From: Trichoplax sp. H2
Taxonomy: Eukaryota
Length of the DNA: 64,000 nt
Direction of reading: 5' to 3'
NCBI GenBank assembly: GCA_003344405.1
Contig: NOWV01000170.1
Location: 62,001 to 126,000, forward strand
The translations under genes were made by a program, and so were the position numbers. Shown in pieces: positions 3-60,818 of the stretch; positions within the stretch are counted from its first letter, which is position 1; each line of letters starts with the position of its first letter. The notes beneath the pieces were generated by a model. It saw nothing but the letters and a program-made list of their open reading frames with translations, made no database searches and was not told the origin of the DNA.

Positions 3-1718
3 GATGAAGGCTTAAAGATTCAATGTATTAACTTTCGTACTGATGAAATTACTCTAAACATTCAGGAAGAAAAAGTAGATGTGGAAAATGGTTGTGTTAC
101 CAGTCAAGGTCAATTAATCTTACCGTTGCAGCGAAATTTAATTAAAATCTACGATCTAAATACCAATCAGCATATTAAAGATATACCGGGAAGTTCTCTA
201 CGCGAATTTACTGGGGAAAAGAAACATTTAATGGGGCTTGTTCAGTCTGAAAATTTATTTACCTGTACTCAAGGTAAAATTGCTTATTGGAATCTAACAT
301 CAAGCATTAGTACTCCATTACTAGAATTGCAAGATGCTGATATACCCAATGTTATCCACTTTCTGCATAAGGAAAATGGCAATAATCACTCCTATGTCAT
401 AGCAACAGCAAAAGGCAATTGCATCTGTTTATGGAAATGTCAGGCAAGCGATGGATTCGATTTCAATCGAGAAGCTAATCAATCTAGTACAGCTTTTAGC
501 CCAACCCAAATTATGGCACTGTCTCCTGATCAACCGCGTTCCTCCTTAGTCAGTTATGAGGCAGAAAAACAACTTTGCACCGTATGGAACATGAATCAAC
601 AACCCATCTTGATCCTGAAAAAAGTCAAAACTAAATTATTTAATCAGGGCTTTCTTTTCATCGATAGTAAAAGTGCTCTTGTACGTGATTATGTCATTAA
701 TTTACAGACCCAATCGCCTATATGCCAATTACAGTGCAATCAAATCAATCCAGATACTATAGCTAAGAACAGTAAAATCATTGAAGAAAATAAATTAGCT
801 ATCTTATCTCAAGACTGTACCAATATATTTATTTTTTCATTATCGGATGGTAAGATCGTAACAACAATTTCATTTCCTGCTAATAGTACATGCCATAAGG
901 TTATTTATAGCGAGAATGGCCGAGTTGCTGTAACCCTAATTGGCAGTGATATCATGGCTTGGAATATCGTTGACGGTAAATTAATAGCAAAAAATACTCC
1001 CGCAACTCAACTCGATCATATTTGTTTAGACAACCAAGGCCACTATGTGGCCATGTTTAGTTATCATGGCGAAGTCAATAAAGATGGAACATCCAACTCG
1101 TTAGTCCACCTTTGGAATTTAGCCAAACAACAATTATTAACTTATAAATTAAACTACAGTCCACGAGCTGGAGGTCTGGCACTAACCAAGCAATATATTC
1201 TTGGAGGAGATAATTCTGGTGATATCTCGTTGTGGGCAACTGGTGATGGTAGTTTAGTTCAGCAACTGCATGGCCATTATCACGATGTATATAAAATAAT
1301 TATTAATCAACACGAAGATCGAATGTTGACCATGTCCGAATATGATTACGATGGTACTATCCGTTTATGGGATTTATCAGCTTTAGTTGAGTTAGCAGCA
1401 TTTCGCCCAGATTGGCGAATTGAAAGATCCAATATAGCTTTAATTGATCATGGTCAAAAAATTGTCATAACGTTAGATGGCATCAATCAGTTTATTATCG
1501 TTCAATTTCATTCTGCTGCTGTTGATGAAAATCAAATTATAACTGTATTTGAAGACGAAATTATTGATGTAAGACCAACAACTATCGACTTATCCCAAAT
1601 ACAACCTCCAAAAGATGCTGGAACAAATCAGCAATCACTGTTCCAAGCACAAGCCAAGCTAGAGAAAAAATCCAAGAAAAATCGGAAAAATGTAGCGAGA
1701 TCGTGTATACTATCATAA
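3..1718 (+). CDS. C-terminal exon of a WD40-repeat protein (NACHT/WD NWD-like), 5' truncated by the window edge; ends in a polybasic stretch plus CaaX
   Basis: The frame is open from position 3, so the GTG at 81 is not the real start. WD motifs are present (LHGHYHDV...DGTIRLWD, SGDISLWA). The C-terminus is KKSKKNRKNVARSCILS*. Confidence 0.8.
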   Translation, partial: DEGLKIQCINFRTDEITLNIQEEKVDVENGCVTSQGQLILPLQRNLIKIYDLNTNQHIKDIPGSSLREFTGEKKHLMGLVQSENLFTCTQGKIAYWNLTSSISTPLLELQDADIPNVIHFLHKENGNNHSYVIATAKGNCICLWKCQASDGFDFNREANQSSTAFSPTQIMALSPDQPRSSLVSYEAEKQLCTVWNMNQQPILILKKVKTKLFNQGFLFIDSKSALVRDYVINLQTQSPICQLQCNQINPDTIAKNSKIIEENKLAILSQDCTNIFIFSLSDGKIVTTISFPANSTCHKVIYSENGRVAVTLIGSDIMAWNIVDGKLIAKNTPATQLDHICLDNQGHYVAMFSYHGEVNKDGTSNSLVHLWNLAKQQLLTYKLNYSPRAGGLALTKQYILGGDNSGDISLWATGDGSLVQQLHGHYHDVYKIIINQHEDRMLTMSEYDYDGTIRLWDLSALVELAAFRPDWRIERSNIALIDHGQKIVITLDGINQFIIVQFHSAAVDENQIITVFEDEIIDVRPTTIDLSQIQPPKDAGTNQQSLFQAQAKLEKKSKKNRKNVARSCILS

Positions 1719-3084: not shown

Positions 3085-4440
3085 ACCAATCCATCAATCG
3101 CCACGCTAGACTCGAGTCGATCCAAGTCCATCCGCTAGCTATGAACATTCCAATCTCTTGGCATTTATTTTGAGTACTGGAAAGGATCCAATACAAGCGC
3201 TCCAAATTCCCTTTGAATTTCGTAGAGCAGCAGTTTGCCATGCCACACCATGGACTACCGCTGTTGAACGAATGGCATCCTAGCTAGTCTACAAGGGCTT
3301 CCATTGCCTTTGACTATTGCATAGTAGCAAATTTCCTTACCATTGACTGCAGCTGTTGAACAGACTGTATAGCAACCAACCAATCCATCGTCACACGATT
3401 CTCTAGTCGATATGTTCATCAACTAGTTATGGACGTTTGCAATCCACTTTCCAATCCATCGTCGATCCAAGATTCATTTTGAGTAGTCGAAGGATCCAAT
3501 ACAAGTGCTTCTATTGCCTTTGACTATTGCATAGTAGCAAATTTCCTTACCATTGACTGCAGCTGTTGAACAGACTGTATAGCAGCCAACCAATCCATCG
3601 TCACACTACATTCTAGTCGATATGTTCATCAACTAGTTATGGACGTTTGCAATCCAATTTTCAATCAAGCGTCGATCCAAGATTCATTTGGAGTAGTCAA
3701 AGGATCCAATACAAGTGCTTCCATTGCCTTTAAATATTGCATAGTAGCCAATGTCCATACCATGGACTAAATCACACGACACTCTAGTCGATATGTTCAT
3801 CAACTAGCTATGGACGTTGGAGTTCATTAGCACTAAACGCTGGATATTTGCAATCCAATTTCCAATCAAGCGTCGATCCAAGATTCATTTGGAGTAGTCA
3901 AAGGATCCAATACAAGTGCTTCCATTGCCTTTAAATATTGCATAGTAGCCAATGTCCATACCATGGACTAAATCACACTACACTCTAGTCGATATACAAA
4001 TCAATCAAAATGCTAATGGACGTTGGAGTTTATTAGCATTAGACGCTGGACGTTTGCAATCCAATTTCCAATCAAGCGTCGATCCAAGATTTATTTGGAG
4101 TAGTCAAAGGATCCAACATAATCCAGGCGCTCCAATTGCCTTTGAATATCTCGTATAATAGCAGATTTGCATACCACACCATTGACTAACAGCGGTTGAA
4201 CGAGTGATATCTTTGCCTGCCGATGCTGGAATACCGTAGCGTTACTGCAGACTGTAGTGGAGATTTACGTCCAAGTTCATCAACTCGCTATTGCCGTTGG
4301 AGTCCATTTGCATTGGGTGGCACTGGGTGTTTGCAATCCACTCTCCAATAGAGTTTAGCATCGATCCAAGATTCATTTTGAGTACTGGAAGGATTAAAAT
4401 ACAACCGGCTAAATTCCCTTTGAATATTGTATAGTAGGCG
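3085..4440. repeat. Degenerate tandem array, ~200-210 bp unit, about 6 copies
   Basis: The motifs cgtcgatccaagattcattt.gagtagtc.aaggatccaatacaagtgctt and attgccttt..tattgcatagtagc recur at ~3301, 3511, 3721, 3922 and 4132, with more diverged flanking copies. Confidence 0.85.
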
Positions 4441-14596: not shown

Positions 14597-16990
14597 TCTC
14601 TATTCTTGCAGTAAATTTATTAGTAGATTAACAGCAATACAGTTATCAAGCCTTTCAGAATGATAAACTATAAATTACCAGTAGAACCCATGCTCGCTAT
14701 ACTTCTCGTACTATATCTAGTTCGTATGAACTTGGTACTTTTTACTGAACAGACGGGCTTTTAGATTTTGCTACAGATAGTCTGATTGTGCAAAAGTAGC
14801 CACAACAATAATATCAAATTATTAATATATTATAGAGTCCATTCCAAACTCTACAGTCACAGAATACCCTAATTGTGCAACTGATAATATATAGGTGGCA
14901 CTCTCCGATAGAATAGAAATTCAAGTATATTAAGATTAGATGCAAAAATTAAAACAGTTTTCTTTTCAAAGAACAAGTAAAGGCATAATAATTAAGGGAG
15001 CCATTAAAGTTGGGAGCTATTCATGATAACCCTCTAACAGAATTATACAACGCCTGAAATATGCGAGAGTGAATAAATGTACGCTATGGTAGGATAGGTT
15101 GCAAATCACTAGCAAGATTAAATCGTGCCAAGAGCTGAGGATAGATGTTCACTACTGAAACTCAATTCTATATTTATCCAGATAGATACGAGTACGTGCA
15201 TGAAATTTTTTCTTCTATAGTTCCTATTAAAATAGTATAACCTGCTAACTGAGTGCTACGTTAAGAATGAATAGTCTGCAGTGAAGAATCAGATAGATTT
15301 TGGTGATATCAGATTAACTTAACTTAGCTATTTATGCCTACAGTATCATTTACACGTACATCTCATATTTTACAATGCAACTGATAAGCTCTAAGAATCT
15401 CGCCGACTTAGCTAGCAGTTGGTATAATCTTCCTTCTACCGTCAATAGGAGTATTTACGGTTATAGGATTGTCAACGTCTTTGCTTGTAGCAGATAACTC
15501 TAAATCTCAGTTATTAAAGTGGAATGTCACTCTGTCAATATTGTATTAGTAGAAATCCTAGTAACAACATTTTGCAACAATACTGCCAACTATTTCTGAA
15601 TATACAGGAGTAAATACCTATTAACTACTTCTTTTAGTAACTTATATTTCCAACTCTAAATAGATATGTAGTGATGCACCCGTATTGATTATACAGATAG
15701 CTATATTTGTTATAGTTAGGTTGCTTTGAATAGATATTACCGTGAAGCTAATATTAGATGATTGCTAAGTACTATATTAGAAATTGTTGATGACTAATAG
15801 TAGCCAGTTAACTAATTATGCTACAAGATTTATGTAGCTAGAAACACAGGAGTTGTTAAGATGCCCTTCAAAGAAAGGACTAGGCGTTAATAGAAGATTA
15901 GTGGCATCTTAACTAGTATGATTTAGATTATAGAAAATAATGATGTACTATTGGAGAAAAGTATTTTGTTTGATGACTTATGCCTGATTGTAGATTAATC
16001 AAGTTGTCATAAATAGATTTAACGAAATGTTTATAAGAACTGTAGAGATGAGCCGACAGAGGAGAAGAGATTTCGCTTCGCTTTGAGCTCGGAATACTTT
16101 AGATTTTAGACTAGATTCTTGTAGTAATTAATTATTGCTCTACTATTCCTAAAACCTTGTAATAAAAGCCTTTTAGAAATACAATTTGACTAAGCTATTT
16201 GTTGTGAGACGCATTTATTTCATCTATGAAATTTATCTACTTTAAAGTAACATAACTTCTTTAAACTTTCAATTTATACACGTACGTACTTATAAATAGT
16301 CCGAATAAGTAAAACATCTTTTCAAACATAGAATAGTATAAACAGAGTTGCTAAATATAATACGGTAAATAATCAGATCTATGCGTGTATAAAATAAACT
16401 GAGATATTATACACTTGTAATTCAACATGTAGGATTCGAAATCTTCACCTTGGATTATTAGTATTGTAAAAGCTGTAATAGTGATAGGTTGGTAAATTAT
16501 ACAGACTTATTGGTGCTATTTGAAGATAAACTAGATGATGAGACATCATTAACTGTGCGCCGCTTTATTATACCAGCCATCATCTGCAATTACTTTATTA
16601 AGCATAACAAATTATTCTATGCCACATAGTGCTTATATTATATTGATGTTATACTTTTAATACACATAACTACCGTAATTAGCTGAAATCACATCAATAA
16701 TTAACTAACTAATTCGGGTGTACTCGTAAATACTTTGGCTTACTCTTGTGCAAGTTAATATAATTTACCTAGTTTAAATCAATTATTACGGTCATATCAA
16801 ACAATTAAGTTTTAAAAATCTATTCATTGTGATCATTTTCCCCTCTATTAGAACTTTTAAGAACTTTGAAGAATTTATCAAGTGCAAAATGATCATCGAA
16901 ATGAATAAAGTAAAATAGTATGCCATGAACAAGATAGTAGAAAGGAGAGTAAATTCTTTTAAAAACTTTAATCCTGCACGCATTCTTTCT

Positions 16991-19228
16991 TCAGTAATAG
17001 ACGATGATATCATCCATTTCTGCAAGTCGCCCATAGATCCCATCTAAACCTACATATAAAGTATTGAATATATTAGAATGACCGGTAGTGATATCTTTAT
17101 AACATAGTTTACTATCTTTTGTCCATGTTGGAGCTCCTGTTACTCTGTATAATAAGCATAGTCTACCAAATTTGGAATATGTCCAGTCGATAAGCAAGCG
17201 AAAGTCATACCATTGACCAGGGCTTAAATAATCTCCATAGAATGTAGATCCAGGACCAGTTACAACACGAGATTGAAAATGAGCATTAGGGCAGTCATAT
17301 GGACATTTTACATAACCAAATCCCAAGGTTTGGTTACGAACTACAGAATTGTAAATGAGCAAAACAGGTCCAGCATTATTGCCAGAGCCTGATGTAATTT
17401 TTCCAGTGAATTGAAGGTATGAATCGTTTCGCGAATAATCAAAAGTAAAGTTATATTCCCTCGTTACTCGTTGGCTCCAAACACAGCTAGAACCACTTGC
17501 ATACTTTCCCCTATTAGGATCTATTGCTACAACAGGGCCACAGTTTGCATCATGGCTAGCACCCTTCCAAGGTCCTTGACCTCTTAAGCGACCAACTGTA
17601 TAATTCTCAAAATTATCTATTAATATAGGCTTCCTGATTTTAGGTATAGTTATTGGTGTATTTGTTGATGAAATTGTCTCATCAAGAATTAACCATGTAT
17701 ATTCTAATGGCTTCTCACAGTGACCGATGCTTTCACTATCATATACTATAAAGATCGTATGAATTCCACCTCTTAAAAATGTTAATGTAATATTTCTTGT
17801 GTAACTATACTCCGATAAGTTACCGTTATCTAGCAAGTAAGCGTAACGTAATTCGCTATCAGCACTCATAACAAATTCGGATATAGTCTCATTTGTTATT
17901 TTATTCGGCTTTTTCAATAACTTTACTCTTGGCGATTTTCTCTTTATGGTAGAATTTTCTTTAGTAAATGAAGTCAGCCTGTTATATAGCACGTTCTTCA
18001 TAGAGTAAATTGTAGTACGCATTTGATATGTTGTAGATGGCATAATAGGTGATATGTCTTCCAGAATCTTAGGTTCATAAGAACCTTGATTAATCGGCAA
18101 ACCATACGACGATAACCATTTATTATCGTTAGAATAAATTTGTACGATACTGACCAACGGATTACCTTGACGTATAGAAAATTGTAAGCCGGCATTTCCT
18201 CTAACATCGTTTAAAATAGGTGAAATAATTTCACCTTTACCGTAGTTGACGAGATCGCCGATTAACCATCGTGTAATAACGAGCGCTGTATATGTAGAGG
18301 TCGTTATAGATTCTTCGTATCCGTAACGATGTGTTAAATCTTTAGGGAAATCGATATGTAGATAATGAGCAGCATGAAGTATTCCGTTGAAAACAGCGCC
18401 GTCTAATATTACATCGGCAGTATCTATAATACCATCTCCACTAGCATCGACTAAAGAAGTTTTCCACGGATTGAAATCACCTCTTATCGTCGCATACGAG
18501 ATATTATAGTTAGTAGTGAATTGATACCAATCTTTGTTTAACCAGTAAGTATACGAATTTCCTTCAAAATACTCACTCTTAGCCATTTCAATATATTCTC
18601 CGTATTGTTGCCAATTGTATTGAGGATTATTAATCTTTTCTATTTGTATGTGAGCATTTTCGCTTATACCTAAATTAGGTGTTCCTACTAATAATAGTTT
18701 TCGGATAGTATTCTTACCGTCACCCCATCGCATATAAGCTCTGGCGATTAATCCGCCCATACCATGAGCTACGATATCGACTTTATCAGTACCGATAGCT
18801 CGTAATATATTGATAATAGTAATCGATAATCTATCAGCATAAGAATACATTCTAGAAGTAGAACATCTCATAGAATCTGCAACGCCGCAATAGTAAGGTA
18901 CACTACCACATTGGTGAGGTATTAATCCGATATTAGAATGTTGTATGAAATATTGATAAGGATTTTCTCGATAGAATCCGAATTGGAATATTGTACGAGG
19001 AGATAGCGAGTTATTTTGTAAATCGTTAGATGTTTGCGACCATATTTTACCAAAGTCGTAATAATCGACTTGTGTTAAATAACGTTGAATAAGGTAGTCC
19101 CATGTATTTTCAACGTTTAAATTTCCACTGTGGCCATGAATAAAAATTATCGGATAGAATTGAGTTTGTTGGCAAGTTGCAAATGTCAACATGTGTACTA
19201 AGATAATGATGTTGAAAATGTTTGCCAT
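16991..19228 (-). CDS. Single-coding-exon 745-aa secreted protein: alpha/beta-hydrolase (EstA/PGAP1-like lipase fold), Ig-like/Y_Y_Y-like module and C-terminal beta-sandwich
   Basis: Uninterrupted ORF with a signal peptide (MANIFNIIILVHMLTFATC). Lipase-fold motifs: PIIFIHG (oxyanion), VDIVAHGMGGLIAR (nucleophile elbow), LLVGTPNLG, GDGII and a later His. Confidence 0.85.
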   Translation of the reverse strand: MANIFNIIILVHMLTFATCQQTQFYPIIFIHGHSGNLNVENTWDYLIQRYLTQVDYYDFGKIWSQTSNDLQNNSLSPRTIFQFGFYRENPYQYFIQHSNIGLIPHQCGSVPYYCGVADSMRCSTSRMYSYADRLSITIINILRAIGTDKVDIVAHGMGGLIARAYMRWGDGKNTIRKLLLVGTPNLGISENAHIQIEKINNPQYNWQQYGEYIEMAKSEYFEGNSYTYWLNKDWYQFTTNYNISYATIRGDFNPWKTSLVDASGDGIIDTADVILDGAVFNGILHAAHYLHIDFPKDLTHRYGYEESITTSTYTALVITRWLIGDLVNYGKGEIISPILNDVRGNAGLQFSIRQGNPLVSIVQIYSNDNKWLSSYGLPINQGSYEPKILEDISPIMPSTTYQMRTTIYSMKNVLYNRLTSFTKENSTIKRKSPRVKLLKKPNKITNETISEFVMSADSELRYAYLLDNGNLSEYSYTRNITLTFLRGGIHTIFIVYDSESIGHCEKPLEYTWLILDETISSTNTPITIPKIRKPILIDNFENYTVGRLRGQGPWKGASHDANCGPVVAIDPNRGKYASGSSCVWSQRVTREYNFTFDYSRNDSYLQFTGKITSGSGNNAGPVLLIYNSVVRNQTLGFGYVKCPYDCPNAHFQSRVVTGPGSTFYGDYLSPGQWYDFRLLIDWTYSKFGRLCLLYRVTGAPTWTKDSKLCYKDITTGHSNIFNTLYVGLDGIYGRLAEMDDIIVYY

Positions 19229-21929
19229 GATGGAGATTGGGTCAGAAATAACAACCTATTAATTAATTAAACGACAAAATTAGAATTATCTACGTAAATA
19301 AAGTTATCTGTGTCTGTTATAAGAGTAAATGATGTTAATGGAATACCAGTAATGTCTGTATCCAATTAAGCTATGTACCACTATCTTGATTTGACACAGT
19401 AACCAAACAGGAGAGTGATGAAAGAAATTTGATTACTTGAAAAAATGCGGATGTATGAGACGCTGAAATAACGAAAAAATACATTACAAATAAAAAGACG
19501 TATACGAGACGCACAGTGCTTTTTGTGCCTATTTTACCATTCTATATAGTAATATTTATAGTAACAGATATGTTAAAAAGACAAGAATAAAACACTCTTT
19601 TGCAAACTACATACTCAAAAACAACGTAAAGATTGCCATTTTTTCTTATAATTGTAAATTTAAATCAAAAAAGTGGATACTACCTTAAGATGGGCCTTGA
19701 AGCTGTTTGGCTTGATAATTGATAAGTGCAATTATAAGTTTCGGAACAAATTTATTGCCTAAGGAAATTGCTAAGCAACAACTGCTTACGTATCTGAATT
19801 TGGTAGTATAATAGATTGATACAATGCTTAATTTAGGCACCTTAATAAGTGGTCTAGGTACTTTATAATGACATTAATTTTACAAGTGAAATACGCTACT
19901 GGTGATGGTAATGACATTGAAAAGCTATAGTTTTTCTACTACCGTTAAAGCACTATTTAAATCTAGTGTTCGATTATCACTATATAATATTGCGAATAAG
20001 AATGCGGTAGTATTGATAATATTTTAGCTTAATGGTTACAGTATACTATCAAAGGCAACAAGTTATAAATACTAAGTCATTATCCGTAGTTAACATTTAA
20101 TTGCAAACTCTACCTGCGCAGCCAATAATTATAAAATTAGTGATTCTAAATGTCGTAATATAAAATGTAGTCGACTAAATGTAGAATACAGTCCAGTATA
20201 TTGCAAATCACTAGCAAAAATAACGTCAGCAATACCTGCCTACAGTTCTGTCTACATCCGGAAGTGAGTCACTTCTATCGAAACTAACTATCACTTTTGT
20301 TGTTATATATTCACATGTACAATTGTACATATACAATACAATGTGTAAATTTAAATTGCTTTCAGTATCCCCTGCTAGGATAGCATCAATCGTAATTGAT
20401 TGCAGTATACAATGAAGGATAGAATAGATTTATATGATGTCAGATTAATTGTTACTGCTAGCAGTATATCTCCATATCGTATTTTGCGCTTGGCGTAGTA
20501 TTTAATAATTAAGTATAAGGTTCAAAATGACTTTATTTTAGCCTGTTGTTATTAATCTCGTCCTCTTGTTGATTAGAGTATTGACCGTTTTATTTCACTT
20601 ATTCTGCATGTAATCGATGATTCCAAATCTCCATTTCTAAGCATGGGCTGTCAATCATTGCATTAAAATGATTTTACGATAACCGATCTATTATCTCTGA
20701 ATAAATCCGATCCTCCGATCCCCTCCCTATTTAACGAGGTGATCTATTGGAGTAGTTAAAATAAAGTAGAACGAGAATAGTGTGTGCAAACTTACCCTTG
20801 TACCTAACAGCACTAACAAACGAGATAGATAGATACTAAGAATTACTTTTACAATGTAAAAAGCACAGCAAAAGAGAACTATTTATAAAGGCTTCTTTAT
20901 TAGCGTATTTCTATGATGCAATCAAATTAGAATGTACGAGCATTCCATAGTTCAATATAGATCATATAGTACATATATGGAATTATGCTTTAATGCAGTA
21001 GAAATTAACTTACACCAAGAAAAGACTATACTGTATATAGTAATGTAGACAATAGTTTATTTTCTTTCTTGAAACTTCCATGGAAATTTTGATCGACGCC
21101 ACGGATCTCTCTTGCTGTTCAGTATATTTGACATATTGTATGAGAACTAATTCATCCGCGGATGCGGGAAATTCTCGAGGTATTCCGACTAATGTACTAA
21201 TTAGGCTACTTCTGCACAAATAATCAATCCCTGACCGATATCTGTTAGTCCTAGGTTACTCTTTATTTGAGACTTAGTAATGATCCAAAACGACGTTGAA
21301 TATTATTTGACCTTACGGTCTAACTGAGACAATCTCGATCACGGTGGATCTCACTACTGAACGTAACTAAATCAAACAGGGCACGCGATGGCGCTTAGAC
21401 TTCTCAAACAATTATAATTACTTATGATTGCCGATAACCGGCAACTACTAACTGCAACCCTGATGAGTTGATTGACTAGAATGGAATATATAGAAATGTA
21501 AACTACGGTTTATTTTATATCTTTAAACTTTCATGAAGATTTTATCTACGCCAACTCTCCTTTAGAACGAACAAATTTCTTTTAACCCTTTCATTATGCT
21601 CGTATTATATAATTATAGTTCGAGATCTTATCCCAATGGCGACTGACTACCGATGATTAACTGCTACCAGAACGTTCTGAATAACTTCTTCTACAATGTA
21701 TTAGCTATAGTTTCTAGACTCTGGCTGAGAAATAAGATGCAACAGTATCTGTATCTGCTTGTGAAGAACGCTCGAGATAGTCAATGTAGTCACATCATCA
21801 GTTGCAAATAGCTTGTTCATATTGGTGAAATGCCAGAGATTTACACTAGTTTCGGTTATTGGAATAGTTACAGTTTAGACATGTCGACTGGCGCATAGAA
21901 ATAAAATAGCTATCTGTATTCCTTAAGGG

Positions 21930-23890
21930 TTGTACAAAATGATGGGAGCAAACATATTGATCATCTCAAGGTGTGTAATCAAGGTGTAATAATAAGAGAT
22001 GCATAACACAACATAACAAATAATAAGTAACAAGAACAGGTTGTAGGAATACAGTCTATAACTGCAGTAGTAGCCCTCGCCATAACGTAAAAACGCGATC
22101 AGAGGTCAGATTTTCCCATAAACTACGGTATGTAAAATAGCATCGGTATGCAGAATTGGATGAGATTTGCTTAACGCTAGATATCTCAACATCGTAGAAG
22201 TATCTAGCCTTATACTATTTGACCTACTTTATGGAAAACTTGATTACAGAGAAATTCTGAGAGAATTCTCATATCCTGATAAAGGCTAGTGCAATAGTCT
22301 ATAAGGTATAATCCATTTCTCATTTCCCATTGCACCCTGATGGCTATCTTGTACCAGCCTTGCGTATTATGTAGATCAGTAGCTGCAGCTATAGACTTAC
22401 AAAGTGGGAAAAATTTTCTGTTGGAGTGACAAAATAACGGGAGCAAATATACAGATCAGCTAAAGGTACATAACTTCTAGGAGACTTTAAATCAATTTTT
22501 AAGAGTTTGATACTATTCCATACATCCTACAACTGAGTTCCACACAAAGCAATCCTCTATTTCTCTCTTTTCATTTCTTCCCGAAATTAATCTTGCTCCA
22601 AACTTGTGTTCTACCTAGTGCTGCAACCACAGATTTATAAAGGGAAAAATATTCCTATTTGAGTACGTTAGTTTCTTTTCCTTTTTAAACATATTTCTAT
22701 AACTTCCCTATAATAAGTATTGGTATTCTTAAGGTTTCAGAAACGACGGGAATAAATATAGAGACCATCTAAAGGTACACAAATACTAGCAGATTTTAAA
22801 TCACTGTGCAAGTATCTGTGACTATCGTATGTATTCTATAGTCGCTATAGTCTGCAAAACATAATGGGCATAATGCATTTCTCTCTTCCTTCCTGCTGCA
22901 TCCAGATGCCTGACTATCTTGCGCCAAGCTGATGTTCTGAGCTGATCATTAGCTGGAACGTAGAAAGGGGAAAAATATCTAAATTTCTATTTATACAGGC
23001 TAGTTTCTGTTCCCGTTTAGACATACCAACTGGTACTCACAAAAAAATAACTATGCCTCTACTGTCTTACACCAAGCTTGTATTCTGTGCAAGTCGATAG
23101 CTATATGATATAGGAAAGAAGGAGAACATTTCCATTTCAGTAAGGTAGTTTTTATTGCATTTTAGAGTACCCCCCAAAAATTACTATTAGGGTTAGGGTT
23201 GCAGATGCAGCTAAAATAGTCTGCAAAGCATATTTCTCCCTTTCTACTGCATCCCGATGCCTATACTGTCTTACACCAAGCTTGTATTCTGTGCAAGTCG
23301 ATAGCTATATGATGTAGGAAAGAAGGAGAACATTTCCATTTCAGTAAGGTAGTTTTTATTGCATTTTACAGTACCCCCAAAAATTACTATTAGGGTTAGG
23401 GTTGCAGATGCAGCTAAAATAGTCTGTAAAGCATATTTCTCCCTTTCTACTGCATCCCGATGCCTATACTGTCTTACACCAAACTTGTATTCTGTGCAAG
23501 TCGATAGCTATATGATGTAGAAAAGGGGGAGAACATCTCCATTTCAGTAAGGTAGTTTCTATGGCATTTGAGACATATTAACTACTACAAGAAACAACTA
23601 CGAGTACTTGTATTAAGGTTAGGGGATTATCGGTATCCTTAAGCATGGACTACTAAAAGAATACTTGTGGTTAAGGCCAGAGTTCGGTCTTCTTCTTGCC
23701 TCTATGGTCAGGGTATTTAGGTTATGCAAACTCATACGAAACCATCTCAAAGTGCATGGCTACGCGGAGATTTTTAATCCATTTTTAAGAGTCTGCCACT
23801 CTTCTATCCATTCTACAGCTGAAGTAGTCTTCAAAGCATAATCCATTTCTCCTTTCCCATAGCATCCATATGCCTATCCTGTCTTTAATG
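21930..23890. repeat. Nested tandem array: old degenerate ~300-bp units plus a young 203-204 bp triplication (23052-23570) carrying TTAGGG dimers
   Basis: tactgtcttacaccaa.cttgtattctgtgcaagtcgatagctatatg occurs at 23060, 23264 and 23467. An older motif, gggagcaaa.ata..gatca.ct.aaggt, occurs at ~21945, 22440 and 22748, with a related copy at ~23741. Confidence 0.85.
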
Positions 23891-35354: not shown

Positions 35355-36622
35355 GATTTCGTCAATAACTCGTGGTCGTGATCAACGAACCAGTTGAAAT
35401 TTTGCCTAGATTAACTACCTATTTAATATTAAAACAGGCTTGTGTTGTCCTATCGATTTTAGTCGATTGTAATGGATCCAGAAAGGCAAAAAACAGTTCT
35501 CTAAATTAAAACACCACCGACACTCCGACAGTCGTCTTTTGCCTATCCTATGGCTCATTTATTCCATCATTTTCACCGTTGATTGCAAGATCGAACCACG
35601 CAAAATTCATCGATTATCCTACCACTATCTCTCTCTATCAAGACTAAATGATGCTGAGCAATGAATTAAGACAGCAACACAAGTAAAATACAATTTGCCT
35701 TGATAGACCCAATGAAGAAGATGGTTAAATAAATAAATAAACTAAAAATCTTGGCCATGTTTACAAATAAATCTAATTTATCTTATACTATAGCCTTGTC
35801 ACTATGGGCCATTTGCGTACCTTGACTATGGTAAGTATGTTAAATTCCTTTTCAAGAGTTGTTGCTAATGAGGGAGGTATGGAATGAAAGGGGGCGTTGA
35901 CTACCATAGAGTTTATAGGGTATAGTCGCGTTTTGGCTATCGAGTCCATACTGTATCCAGTATAATATTTCATCAATCTCGTGTACGATTGAAGAGTAGT
36001 CAGCAGTCATCAGTAGAAACTTTGCCTCTATTTTTTCAATCCCATTCAATTTTTTGAATGCTAACAGAGACAACTGTAGCATGCAAATCCAGCTGATCAT
36101 CTATCATCAGTTGAAAAATGAAACTTTCTTGCCTTACTAATGCACGAAAAACTAAAACTTGCACGGTTGTTACTCTCTCTCCCAATGCAACCAGCGCATG
36201 TCAACAATAACAAATGCTGTAGCAAGAAGAGCTGGCATGGAATGAAAATGGCACCATTGACAGGTTTCTACTTGGGCTAAGTAAACCACTGTGAGTGAAA
36301 TTAAAGCTGTATGTCTTACTGGTAAAATAGTAACTATATAAAACTGCCAGCTTTCAACGCAAGTCAATATTGCAAATCACCAGTATCCATGGCCTGGATG
36401 AAAAAAAAGACGACATCTCGAAGATTTTCCTCGGTGAATATTTGATCTTCAAGTGCAGACTTTAATTGATAGAACTGAATCATAATGAGACTAATTTCCA
36501 GTAGTACCGAATTTATTTCAAGACTGCGAGTATGATTTCCGTAATAAATCCATTCAATTTACTAATAGCTATTAGGTAATAGCTAAACAACAACATGCTC
36601 CATGACAGCAGCTCATTTTTGT

Positions 36623-37637
36623 GCTAGTTCCAGATCTGTAGTCATTGCAAAATACGATGAGAATTACGCGACTCTAACGTCCACTAATCCACAGCGAGGT
36701 ATTCAATGTGGAAAGCATCAATTTTAGAGGTTTTAAGATGCTCCTTGAGGAAATGTAAAGTTATTAAATGAACTAATGAGCTGCAAACTATGCTAGTTCC
36801 AGATCTGCGGTCCTTGCAAAATACGAAGAGAATTACGTGTTTCTAACGTCCACTAATCCACAGCGAAGTATTCAATGTGGAAAGAATAGATTTTAGAGGT
36901 CTTAAGATGCTCCTTGAGGGAATATAAAGTTATTAAATGAACTAATGAGCTGCAAACTGTGCTAGTTCCAGATCTGCGGTCCTTGCAAAATACGATGAAA
37001 ATTACGCGTCTCTAACGTCTACTAATCCACAGCGAAGTATTCAATGTGGAAAGAATAGATTTTAGAGGTCTTAAGATGCTCCTTGACGGAATGTAAAGTT
37101 ATTAAATGAACTAATGAGCTGCAAACTGTGCTAGTTCCAGATCTGCGGTCCTTGCAAAATACGATGAGAATTACGTGCCTCTAACGTCTACTAATCCACA
37201 GCGAAGTATTCAATGTGGAAAGAATAGATTTTAGAGGTCTTAAAGATGCTCCTTGACGGAATTTAAAGTTATTCAATGAACTAATGAGCTGCAAACTGTG
37301 CTAGTTCCAGATCTGCGGTCCTTGCAAAATACGAAGAGAATTACGCGTTTCTAACGTCCACTAATCCACAGCGAGGTATTCAATGTGGAAAGCATCAATT
37401 TTAGAGGTCTTAAGATGCTCCTTGACGGAATGTAAAGTTATTAAATGAACTAATGAGCTGCAAACTGTGCTAGTTCCAGATCTACGGTCCTTGCAAAATA
37501 CGATGAGAATTACGTACCTCTAACGTCTACTAATCCACAGCGAAGTATTCAATGTGGAAAGAATAGATTTTAGAGGTCTTAAGATGCTCCTTAAGGGAAT
37601 GTAAAGTTATTCAATGAACTAATGAGCTGCAAACTGT
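36623..37637. repeat. Homogeneous 169-bp satellite-like tandem array, 6 copies
   Basis: Unit starts gctagttccagatct at 36623, 36792, 36961, 37130, 37300 and 37469. Units differ only by scattered substitutions. Confidence 0.97.
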
Positions 37638-38066
37638 GCAAGCTCTGAGCTCAAGTTGCAGCCAAGCAAAATCAGCCAATGTTATTTTACCTTGTTCAAT
37701 GCTAAACAGGCCTGTAAACAAGGATATCGACATGGTACGTCGGAATCCTAACGATTTCTATCGAAAATGATCCCATGTTTGGGATACATGACTACGATTC
37801 AAGGCTATCTCTATAGAACATCGCAAACATGACATTTGTTGTGTTGTAGAGTGACCCAAACATGACTTCAAACCATACGATTGCTATATAGTATCACAAC
37901 TACGTCATTTCACCATACGATCGCTATACTATGTCGAAAACATGGCATATGCACTATTAAAATCATATAACACCCAGAGAGGATCGGATTGTGACGGACG
38001 GATGTCAGGCCCGCGACTTCTTATACAACTTACTCATGCTTCGTTACGCGTGCGTGACTGCCATCG

Positions 38067-44432: not shown

Positions 44433-45725
44433 TCATTCCTCACTTCCTGCCAACATCTTAGTAAGTGGATATCTTGAATAAGATATACTCAACAGATATT
44501 CTTGTAAGCCAGTCGGCATGGAATTATAATGTCTTGTTAAAAATGAAAAAGCATATTCATCCAAGGAATTTGCATGGAATACAGCTTTTTCAATTGCAAG
44601 CAGTACATCCTCCGTTTTGTAATCTTCAGCTGTAAACTCCAGCTTATTGAAACAAAACTTCATAACTATAAATGTGGTTAAAATAATTTTATATGAGGAC
44701 AAGATAGATATCAGATAGCTTCTAATCAAATCTAAATCTAATGGAAATAAATATGAACTGCATTGTCAAATCTTACATTTAACAAAATAAGAATCTCCAT
44801 GTTCTTCGTACGTCTCTTGATCTAAAGTTTGCCACATAACTTCACTTTTTCTAGCTATAGCGTCATCGGATGGTATTAAATTAGTAGTAGTAATCTCATT
44901 TAGAATGCTTATTATTTTAACATCGCTGTCTATCTCTCGTAAATCTTCTCGCAAAGATTTGCAAAATGCTTCTAAGCCAAACATTGCCATATTAAAAGGG
45001 ACAAATTCAGGATGACCAATTCGACTTGCCGAAGATAAGATATTAATAATTCTACCGTGGCTCTTTTTTATTAGTGGTAAGAATGCTCGAATTAGCTCGA
45101 TAGAATTCCATAGATTGTTTTCTAACTCAATTTTACTTTCTTTAACTGAAAACCATTCTACTCCTGCTATAGCAAATGATGGCGGACAATTTATGATTGC
45201 CCATAATTGCTCATGAGATAATTTCTTCTGGATAAGATTAGCGGTAGCTTTTGGCTTTTTAGCATCTAACCTTACAGTCTTAAGACGATTTGAGCATGCT
45301 TTAATTAACGCTTCTTCGCCTTTAGCTGTGATACATGCAGCATAAACGCACAATCCTAAACGGTCGAAATGCTTTACGATAGTCGAGGCAATTCCATGAT
45401 CAGCATATGCAACCAATATCGTTTTATTAAGATAACCTCGAATAAAGGCCGGCTTGCGGAATAACTTCCAGATCACAATGAAAGTAAAGACTGTAACGAT
45501 AGTAATCACGCATAGCACTTTTCTATCGTGAAAGTCAATCTGGTTTACCTTAGCATTCAAATTTGTCAATCTAGAGTACAAGCATATTATGAGTTTGAAT
45601 AATCGATATCAAAGAACTTATTAAAACTGAAGCTATAGAAGTAAATTAATCACTCATGGCTTATTCATTGTACTAATACATACTTTACGTTTGCTATCTT
45701 ACCTAGATTTTATTAGGGCCTCCAT
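44433..45725 (-). CDS. RDH/HSD17B6/BDH1-like short-chain dehydrogenase homologue with degenerate catalytic motifs; 3 exons
   Basis: Exon 1 MEALIKS(R)|gtaag (45703-45725) splices into the long exon. It has an N-terminal TM segment and the SDR-like motifs LCVYAAC, LWAIIN, FLPLIKKSHGRIINILS and FGLEAFCKSLREDL. Confidence 0.8.
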
Positions 45726-59258: not shown

Positions 59259-59960
59259 TAGAGCGTCAACAAATTCCATTCACTCAAAGACAACAACATC
59301 AAATCATTCATTAGTCCAAATAGGGATAATACAGGATTAATAGAAATCCACTGGGATGGACGTGATCCCCTAAATGGTATGCAAAGTAGTTCTTCTACCG
59401 ACATAGACAATTTAAAATTGGACGCTATAGTACACTCGAGAGGACAACATGTTTATTTTCTTTTCAGACGTAGATAAAGGGAAAAAATATGGCTGAAACT
59501 AGCGTAAAATTACTCTACTTTCGACCATGATGTAGCTCGAAAGAACAGTCGAAGCACATAGTAATCATTACTATGTACTATACTTTGCCGTCCAAAAGTT
59601 GAAAACGTAAATAAACACACCGTAGAGACCTCATTTAAGATTACTGTATTCAAAAATGTCATTCCGTATCCATGATACGATATCATGCAGTTCGGTCAGG
59701 GATGACAAAGAGTCGGGAACAAAAATTAAAATACGACTGAAAAGGATTTTTCATTTAATGAACAAAAATGTAAAGGCTGACTTTTTTCCTCTTCATTTTA
59801 CGATACTGAAAGACTGGAATAGTGCAATATACTGCAGCCAACTTAGTGCCCACTTTAATGTGCGAGCTTGTCAACAGTGTATAATGTGCGGCTACAGATG
59901 GACAATGCAGCTAAAATGGCCAGCAACAAGGTTTGGCACATGACATTTTTGTTAATGGAA

Positions 59961-60818
59961 AGTCCTCTCTCTTCTCATCCTGCTCCAGTACCGCAGTCTG
60001 TACCGTCTGTAGGTTTTACAATGGCTTACATATTGATCGACATATTGATACTGTACTGTATGAGTTAAAGTCCTCGTTCTGTCTCTCTCTCTTCTCTTCC
60101 TGCTCCAGTACCGCAGTCTGTACCGTCTGTAGGTTTTATAATGGCTACAATATTGATCGGCATATTGATGCTGTACTGTATGAGTTAAAGTCCTCGTTCT
60201 GTCTCTCTCTCTTCTCTGCCTGCTCCAGTACAGCAGTCTGTACCGTCTGTAAGTTAAAAGTCCTCTCTCTGTCTCTCTCTTTCTTCTCTTCCTGCTCCAG
60301 TACCGCAGTCTGTACCGTCTGTAGGTTTTACAATGGCTACCATATTGATCGACATACTGTATTGATGCTGTACTGTATGAGTTAAAGTCCTCACTCTATC
60401 TCTCCCCTCTTCCTGCTCCAGTACCGCAGTCTGTACCGTCTGTAGGTTTTATAATGGCTACCATATTGATCGGCATATTGATGCTGTACTGTATGAGTTA
60501 AAGTCCTCGTTCTGTCTCTCTCTCTTCTCTGCCTGCTCCAGTACAGCAGTCTGTACCGTCTGTAAGTTAAAAGTCCTCTCTCTGTCTCTCTCTTTCTTCT
60601 CTTCCTGCTCCAGTACCGCAGTCTGTACCATCTGTAGGTTTTACAATGGCTACCATATTGATCGACATATTGATGCTGTACTGTACTGTATGAGTTAAAG
60701 TCCTCACTCTGTCTCTCCCCTCTTCCTGCTCCAGTACCGCAGTCTGTACCGTCTGTAGGTTTTACAATGGCTACCGTACTGATCGACATATTGATGCTGT
60801 ACTGTACAGTATGAGTAA
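59961..60818. repeat. Higher-order tandem array of ~120-bp (A) and 70-bp (B) units: A-A-B-A-A-B-A-A
   Basis: The core cctgctccagtac(c/a)gcagtctgtacc.tctgta occurs 8 times. B units (60191-60260, 60504-60573) lack the 3' half. Confidence 0.95.

Follow-up and report, generated by a model that had tools for sequence, protein, structure and literature searches.

A spliced, bacterial-type lipase-fold gene of Trichoplax sp. H2 encodes glycine at the position of the nucleophile serine

Closest described systems

Secreted lipases of the Bacillus LipA type (family I, Lipase_2) are among the described systems closest to a protein of 745 residues encoded on the minus strand of a 64,000-nucleotide stretch of Trichoplax sp. 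H2 DNA (contig NOWV01000170.1, positions 62,001 to 126,000; hereafter the window). The window protein shares with these lipases the alpha/beta-hydrolase fold, the oxyanion motif P-x-x-x-x-H-G and the nucleophile elbow A-H-x-M-G-G with identical flanks, and its Asp and His come in the expected order. It differs from them in having Gly for the nucleophile Ser, approximately 150 residues of extra insertions and two further domains, and in being encoded by an animal on a spliced mRNA. By fold it also lies near the Streptomyces lipase 5h6b, lipases of Proteus and Pseudomonas, and the PhaZ7 depolymerase. Uncharacterised proteins of 590-610 residues from uncultured bacteria (P0015, P0002, P0004, P0016-P0018, and those of the loci L001 and L002) share both the hydrolase and the middle domains with it, with 49 invariant columns. 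One of them, P0015, is named 'MAG: hypothetical protein [bacterium]' (MAG, metagenome-assembled genome). All of these bacterial proteins have Ser at the nucleophile position, whereas the window protein has lost it and ends in a lectin-fold domain of 228 residues. This C-terminal part shares its jelly-roll fold with concanavalin A (ConA)-like lectins and glucanases, legume lectins, and bacterial LamG-like or sialidase-CBM-like modules, but it has its own motifs and matches no Pfam model.

There are precedents both for hydrolase-fold proteins without catalysis and for gene transfer into Trichoplax. Neuroligins carry Gly at the active-site Ser position. A passage on these proteins (PMC8526735) describes an alpha/beta-hydrolase fold without the active-site Ser that serves binding, and a kept fold with a lost Ser is what the window protein has in common with neuroligins and other cholinesterase-like adhesion proteins. 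Neuroligins differ from it in belonging to another, cholinesterase-like family that is ancient in animals, membrane-anchored and not bacterial in origin. Passages of Driscoll et al. 2013 (PMC3641634) report 12 bacterial-like transfer candidates on large T. adhaerens scaffolds, including 'a bacterial lysophospholipase (MhpC)'. That candidate may be the window gene, and those passages make no mention of a missing nucleophile. A literature search found no paper on this gene. The ESM Atlas contains the 745-residue protein letter for letter, so the protein had been predicted earlier. An initial annotation, made from the window sequence, had pointed out the Gly at the elbow. The features described here that go beyond it are a bacterial-type gene in a placozoan genome, a three-domain protein whose C-terminus has a lectin fold, and, in that C-terminal part, a ratio of non-synonymous to synonymous polymorphism (pN/pS) near 1 in a second allele.

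Glycine at the nucleophile elbow

Read on the minus strand, positions 18772..18752 are gta gct cat ggt atg ggc gga and encode V153-A154-H155-G156-M157-G158-G159. The initial annotation had placed this motif inside an intact open reading frame (ORF), and the sequence confirms it: all 745 codons are open, for which the chance at local composition is approximately 2e-24. The only other ORFs of at least 60 residues at 17000-21000 are two short overlapping minus-strand frames, with none on the plus strand. The protein matches Pfam Lipase_2 (PF01674) with an E-value of 1.4e-7 and 31.7 bits, against a cut-off of 20.3. A profile search of solved structures, which covered the oxyanion and elbow parts of the alignment only, paired 'kvdivahGmgg' of the window protein with 'kvdivahSmgg' of solved Bacillus LipA-type lipases, and 'PIIFIHG' with 'PVVMVHG'. 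Because the flanks are identical to those of the solved lipases, G156 lies exactly at the nucleophile position, without a register shift.

The AlphaFold2 (AF2) model of residues 1-340, made from a 44-row alignment, has a mean predicted local distance difference test score (pLDDT) of 87.3. At the elbow it places a strand at 150-155, a turn at 156 and a helix at 157-168, with a pLDDT of 98 for the block, which is the geometry of a classical nucleophile elbow. In the same model D265 follows strand 244-250 and H288 follows strand 281-284. Its invariance and its place after strand 244-250 suggest that D265 would be the acid of the triad, and H288 is presumably the triad His.

The residue at position 156 was compared in 160 related proteins (13 from a first search and the 150 best of a second, three being shared). 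The BLASTP alignments cover the position in 132 of them, and the other 28 match other domains only. Ser is present in 122 of the 132, including 70 with the motif AHSMGG, the commonest one, in agreement with the Ser consensus that the initial annotation had given for the family; the first seven relatives all read HSMGG. The remaining ten have Gly, like the window protein (P0064, P0114, P0047, and P0009), Cys (P0061, P0084, P0099, and P0120), Pro (P0054) or Asp (P0159). Judged from these alignments, nucleophile loss or change is recurrent within this family.

Among the closest relatives the picture is uniform. Alignment A4, which consists of the window protein and its ten closest relatives over 515 residues at 28-33% identity, has Ser in all ten relatives. 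The oxyanion HG, the Asp of DGII and a His had been listed at first as retained; they correspond to H31-G32, D265 and H288, which belong to the 49 invariant columns of A4, and the window protein keeps 49 of 49. In a profile alignment the window protein reads HG-G-D-H versus HG-S-D-H in 38 relatives. At the DNA level, the pattern H-x-[MLQ]-G-G, with the variable site restricted to S, G, C, A or D, gave a total of 80 matches over 80 prokaryotic loci, not necessarily one per locus, with 79 Ser codons (46 AGY and 33 TCN) and one Cys codon. The four closest prokaryotic loci have AGT or AGC, and a single A-to-G transition therefore suffices for GGT, as the proposed one-step change from AGT requires.

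The stretch is present in 20 of the 24 public sequencing runs listed, which come from 7 studies and carry two coded organism labels. We compared the codon in four runs (X12, X4, X8, and X19) from four studies and two organism labels; some of them may go back to the source, or to a clonal culture, from which the assembly came, which limits their independence. Run X12 has no differences from the window over 16500-19253. X4 and X8, both of which have whole-stretch contigs, have two and three differences, respectively, without any C>T or C>A. In X19, which has the other organism label, a contig at 18007-19253 spans the codon, and all five C>T and two C>A differences of this run lie at 16743-17432. 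A Ser (AGY, TCN) or Cys codon requires C>T or C>A at position 18763 and is therefore excluded in all four runs. The assembly error or private allele that the initial annotation had raised is not supported. Searching with tblastn found no second copy of the protein within the 64-kb window.

Transcript, domains and genomic setting

The coding sequence (CDS) is free of introns. Two introns, both GT..AG, lie within the 5' untranslated region (UTR) (Table 1). The X12 contig has a loose end at 19462, whose 17 letters match 19631-19615 exactly. The spliced leader has an in-frame stop ahead of the ATG. Since GT..AG introns are joined in RNA-derived contigs, the gene is transcribed and processed by the eukaryotic host. 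An upstream ATG at 19637-19639 (minus strand), in the presumed exon 1, would open an upstream ORF of 38 codons, in frame and ending before the main ATG. In the 3' flank, contig depth at 16587-16692 is approximately 10-fold higher, with many loose ends to unrelated sequence in all four runs, and this segment looks like a dispersed repeat.

Table 1. Features of the gene and the encoded protein (positions in the window)
Feature	Positions	Strand	Basis
CDS, complete	16991..19228	-	745 codons + stop, intronless; ORF list
C-terminal ConA/legume-lectin-fold domain, residues 518-745	16994..17677	-	AF2, Foldseek
Middle beta-rich region, residues 331-517	17678..18238	-	aligns with bacterial relatives
Alpha/beta-hydrolase domain, residues 22-330	18239..19165	-	AF2, Foldseek, Pfam Lipase_2
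H288 (HAAH), presumed catalytic His	18365..18367	-	invariant in A4, nearly so in wide alignment A2
D265 (GDGII), presumed catalytic acid	18434..18436	-	invariant in alignments A1 and A4
Nucleophile elbow V-A-H-G-M-G-G, residues 153-159	18752..18772	-	matched to VAHSMGG of LipA-type lipases
Codon GGT, Gly156 replacing nucleophile Ser	18761..18763	-	sequence and relatives
Oxyanion-hole motif H31-G32 (PIIFIHGH)	19133..19138	-	invariant in A4; pairs with PVVMVHG of solved lipases
N-terminal hydrophobic leader, ~21 residues, MANIFNIIILVHMLTFATCQQ, presumed signal peptide	19166..19228	-	sequence; modelled helix 2-16
5' UTR intron 2, 91 nt, GTATTC...AATAG	19256..19346	-	joint 19253>19345 (cut +2), RNA run X19 and X12
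5' UTR exon 2	19347..19462	-	X12 contig piece 19345-19462
5' UTR intron 1, 152 nt, GTATGT...TTTCAG	19463..19614	-	X12 contig only
3' end of 5' UTR exon 1	19615..19631	-	X12 loose end

The protein comprises three domains behind the leader, and its bacterial relatives likewise begin with hydrophobic leaders. In Foldseek searches the best matches of the hydrolase domain are bacterial secreted lipases (E-value 7.5e-8) and the PhaZ7 depolymerase. This domain contains a Cys-rich insertion (C107, C114, and C122; residues 107-122, positions 18860-18910), which sits where the AF2 model is weakest (pLDDT below 50 at 115-124) and where the relatives carry different insertions. The middle region matches no Pfam family, with a weak Y_Y_Y hint (E-value 0.054) in relative P0002 only. 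Residues ~428-526 match the repeated unit of giant proteins, one of which has as many as 16 such stretches.

The C-terminal domain is modelled as all-beta with a pLDDT of 85.8, and its Foldseek matches are legume lectins and other ConA-like jelly rolls (E-value 2.5e-7, template modelling score ~0.5). By sequence it forms a separate family with 13 relatives, marked by the motifs IDDFExY, SGSGNN and WYDFRLxIDW; an NCBIfam search returned a far sub-threshold match only. Its neighbours in the ESM Atlas are bacterial surface proteins, one cluster being 35% with Sialidase-like_CBM, and the same domain ends the bacterial LCAT-like hydrolase P0024. In the two close relatives of the window protein that were scanned, P0015 and P0002, a short tail of the '3-coathanger stack' type (GCX_COOH) takes its place.

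The gene lies physically within host DNA, as the animal genes in the window, the whole-stretch contigs in other runs and the spliced GT..AG introns demonstrate. Stop-free frames of at least 100 residues make up 19% of the 64-kb window versus 85-100% of five bacterial loci. The GC content at third codon positions of the CDS is 0.275, against 0.28-0.34 in neighbouring ORFs. Neighbours in the window include a WD-repeat-like frame, a short-chain dehydrogenase-like ORF, and an exon of a polypeptide N-acetylgalactosaminyltransferase, which is 99% identical to 'Polypeptide N-acetylgalactosaminyltransferase 11 [Trichoplax sp. H2]'. The WD-repeat-like frame (3-1718, plus strand) is open for 571 residues off the window start and is unusually long for this intron-rich window. 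The dehydrogenase-like ORF (44766-45581, minus strand) has a best match at 70% identity, followed by spider proteins at 33%. Tandem arrays occur at 36620-37639 (169 nt x 6, 93% matches), 3290-4116 (~205 nt x 3.3) and 23053-23569 (203 nt x 2.5). A complex 120/313-nt array occupies 59965-60816, and its two strands give the repetitive ORFs 59933-60385 and 60391-60789.

Origin, second allele and competing explanations

Among 5.8 and 1.84 billion proteins searched, the best matches of the window protein are only 30-41% identical, and those with names are 'MAG: hypothetical protein [bacterium]' or metagenome proteins of the Joint Genome Institute (JGI). The closest relatives, with 31-36% identity over ~500 residues, come from uncultured bacteria and metagenomes. 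When the protein minus its C-terminal domain (515 residues) served as the query against 185,579 prokaryotic species, each represented by one genome, near-full-length relatives were found only at L001 and L002. Both belong to unclassified uncultured bacteria. Partial or distant relatives occur in Nitrospirae, Magnetococcales, WOR-3, Woesearchaeota and more. In a maximum-likelihood (ML) tree of 73 hydrolase domains, the window protein falls, with only moderate support, into a group of 12 rows, together with 11 Ser-bearing metagenome or MAG rows. The first protein search returned no animal-named match, other animal and placozoan genomes being outside that search. A viral route of acquisition is without support, as none of 49 pattern matches in viral contigs is a relative. 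The distant bacterial and metagenome relatives, the tree group, the host-like composition and the lack of viral relatives among those matches together point to a bacterial-type gene that was probably acquired horizontally, in an old transfer. At the bacterial loci, an RHS-repeat protein and a Tlde1-domain protein (L002 5666-7591 and L001 4613-5032) adjoin the closest relatives. These neighbours make it a polymorphic-toxin or secretion-effector kind of locus, a possible clue to the role of the Ser-bearing bacterial proteins.

Run X19 carries a second version of the 3' part of the gene. A contig at 16608-17534 with 46 differences and a depth of 16.2 stands beside a window-like piece with a depth of 18.5, and the two branches merge into one contig with a depth of 32.5, the behaviour expected of two expressed alleles. 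Within the last 180 codons the second allele has at least 26 CDS differences, 6 synonymous and 20 non-synonymous, a count that is incomplete in that six of the 46 differences of the contig are outside those listed. Of the 18 residues replaced, 17 are outside the conserved columns of the lectin-fold domain. The CDS of both alleles is open where seen and has no indel, versus two indels in the 3' flank. The allele pattern looks like relaxed constraint, and diversifying change on a lectin surface would fit it as well. Marked divergence between alleles has precedent in these animals: passages of Kamm et al. 2018 (PMC6057997) give a mean synonymous divergence (dS) of 0.024 between the two Trichoplax lineages and speak of 'substantial' allele differences.

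We consider, with moderate confidence, that the gene encodes a secreted non-catalytic pseudo-enzyme, which binds and does not cleave. The pseudo-enzyme reading, already raised in the initial annotation, has the best support, since the codon is genuine, all four runs have it in common and a spliced transcript contains it. A placozoan would have gained a bacterial-type gene horizontally and taken it into use, and the acquired gene would have come to its present host-like codon usage, hydrophobic leader and two spliced 5' UTR introns. A single AGT-to-GGT change would have removed the nucleophile Ser, with the oxyanion HG, Asp265 and His288 staying in place. Without a nucleophile there is no acyl-enzyme step, and the hydrolase domain would therefore be a pseudo-enzyme whose catalytic activity is, as far as the sequence tells, lost. 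The protein is probably secreted, as its leader suggests. By analogy with neuroligins, the domain may have been repurposed for lipid or ligand binding, and the hydrolase cleft and the lectin-fold domain might together hold a lipid- or glycan-bearing ligand extracellularly, for example on food or microbes. In a narrower proposal, to which we give little credence, the captured gene was disarmed by the one Ser-to-Gly change and fused to, or kept with, a lectin-fold domain, and its secreted product would now recognise or capture lipids and glycans on the surfaces of microbes or algae; the allele differences in the lectin-fold domain would then reflect diversifying selection and not decay.

Several observations weigh against a binding protein kept by selection, and most of them would suit a gene in early decay, dispensable after the loss of the nucleophile and still transcribed, with no stop or frameshift yet. 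Between the alleles, pN/pS over the last 180 codons is 0.96, an omega of 0.3 or less is rejected (p 0.0065) while 1 fits, and one allele change, D729G, strikes a conserved Asp. Among the 36 nearly invariant columns of A4, there are 13 at which the window protein is the one that differs, including 9 in the hydrolase domain, whereas no relative deviates at more than 6. Its end branch is the longest in its tree group (0.82 vs 0.15-0.68), and the branch that places it has a Shimodaira-Hasegawa-like approximate likelihood ratio test (SH-aLRT) value of 82 only and is not starred. An orthologue from another species was not found in the protein collections searched, and transcription by itself is no proof of function. 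Decay has to be set against a 745-codon frame that is intact in an AT-rich genome, where 5.6% of single changes would create a stop and the probability of having none after 2% neutral divergence is 0.08. Both alleles have remained open where seen, without an indel in the CDS; in the window allele 28 of the 29 columns conserved in the lectin-fold domain are intact, as are the A4 invariants; and the placement of nearly all replacements outside conserved columns would also fit variable surface positions. The decaying gene stays a rival because the second allele has a pN/pS near 1 in its C-terminal part; we regard it as a less likely explanation that deserves to be taken seriously.

The protein could still be an enzyme if the Asp-His pair and the oxyanion hole used water or a substrate-borne nucleophile, or performed some other Ser-free reaction. 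The retention of the oxyanion HG, Asp265 and His288 despite the loss of Ser would suit this, and the four Gly and four Cys among the 132 relatives indicate that the family tolerates other residues at the nucleophile position; the ML tree requires independent changes to Gly in P0064 and in the window protein. However, Asp and His have a part in shaping the fold too and can outlast catalysis, and members of this lipase family are not known to function unless Ser, Cys or Asp serves as the nucleophile. We find continued catalysis very improbable. The notion of an artefact, be it a misread or misassembled codon or contaminating bacterial DNA in the assembly, has nothing in its favour beyond its prior, apart from the chance that some of the runs are the assembly source or the same clonal cultures. 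Agreement at the codon extends over four runs from different studies and under two organism labels, X4 and X8 carry the entire stretch in contigs, RNA contigs bridge the spliceosomal introns of the 5' UTR, and the gene has a host-like composition in the company of animal genes. This explanation is close to refuted.

If the pseudo-enzyme is a working one, an early-branching animal has made a binding protein out of a transferred bacterial hydrolase gene. It would connect gene transfer into Trichoplax with the use of dead alpha/beta hydrolases as binders, both of them known themes, and the single-codon revertant G156S would make it a simple test case. If the gene is merely decaying, it is an ordinary case of a transferred gene caught while being lost. 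Either way, annotation pipelines would call the protein a 'lipase' or 'carboxylesterase' and would probably be wrong on its activity. Should the recognition proposal hold true, one of the simplest animals would possess an innate-recognition molecule of bacterial origin.

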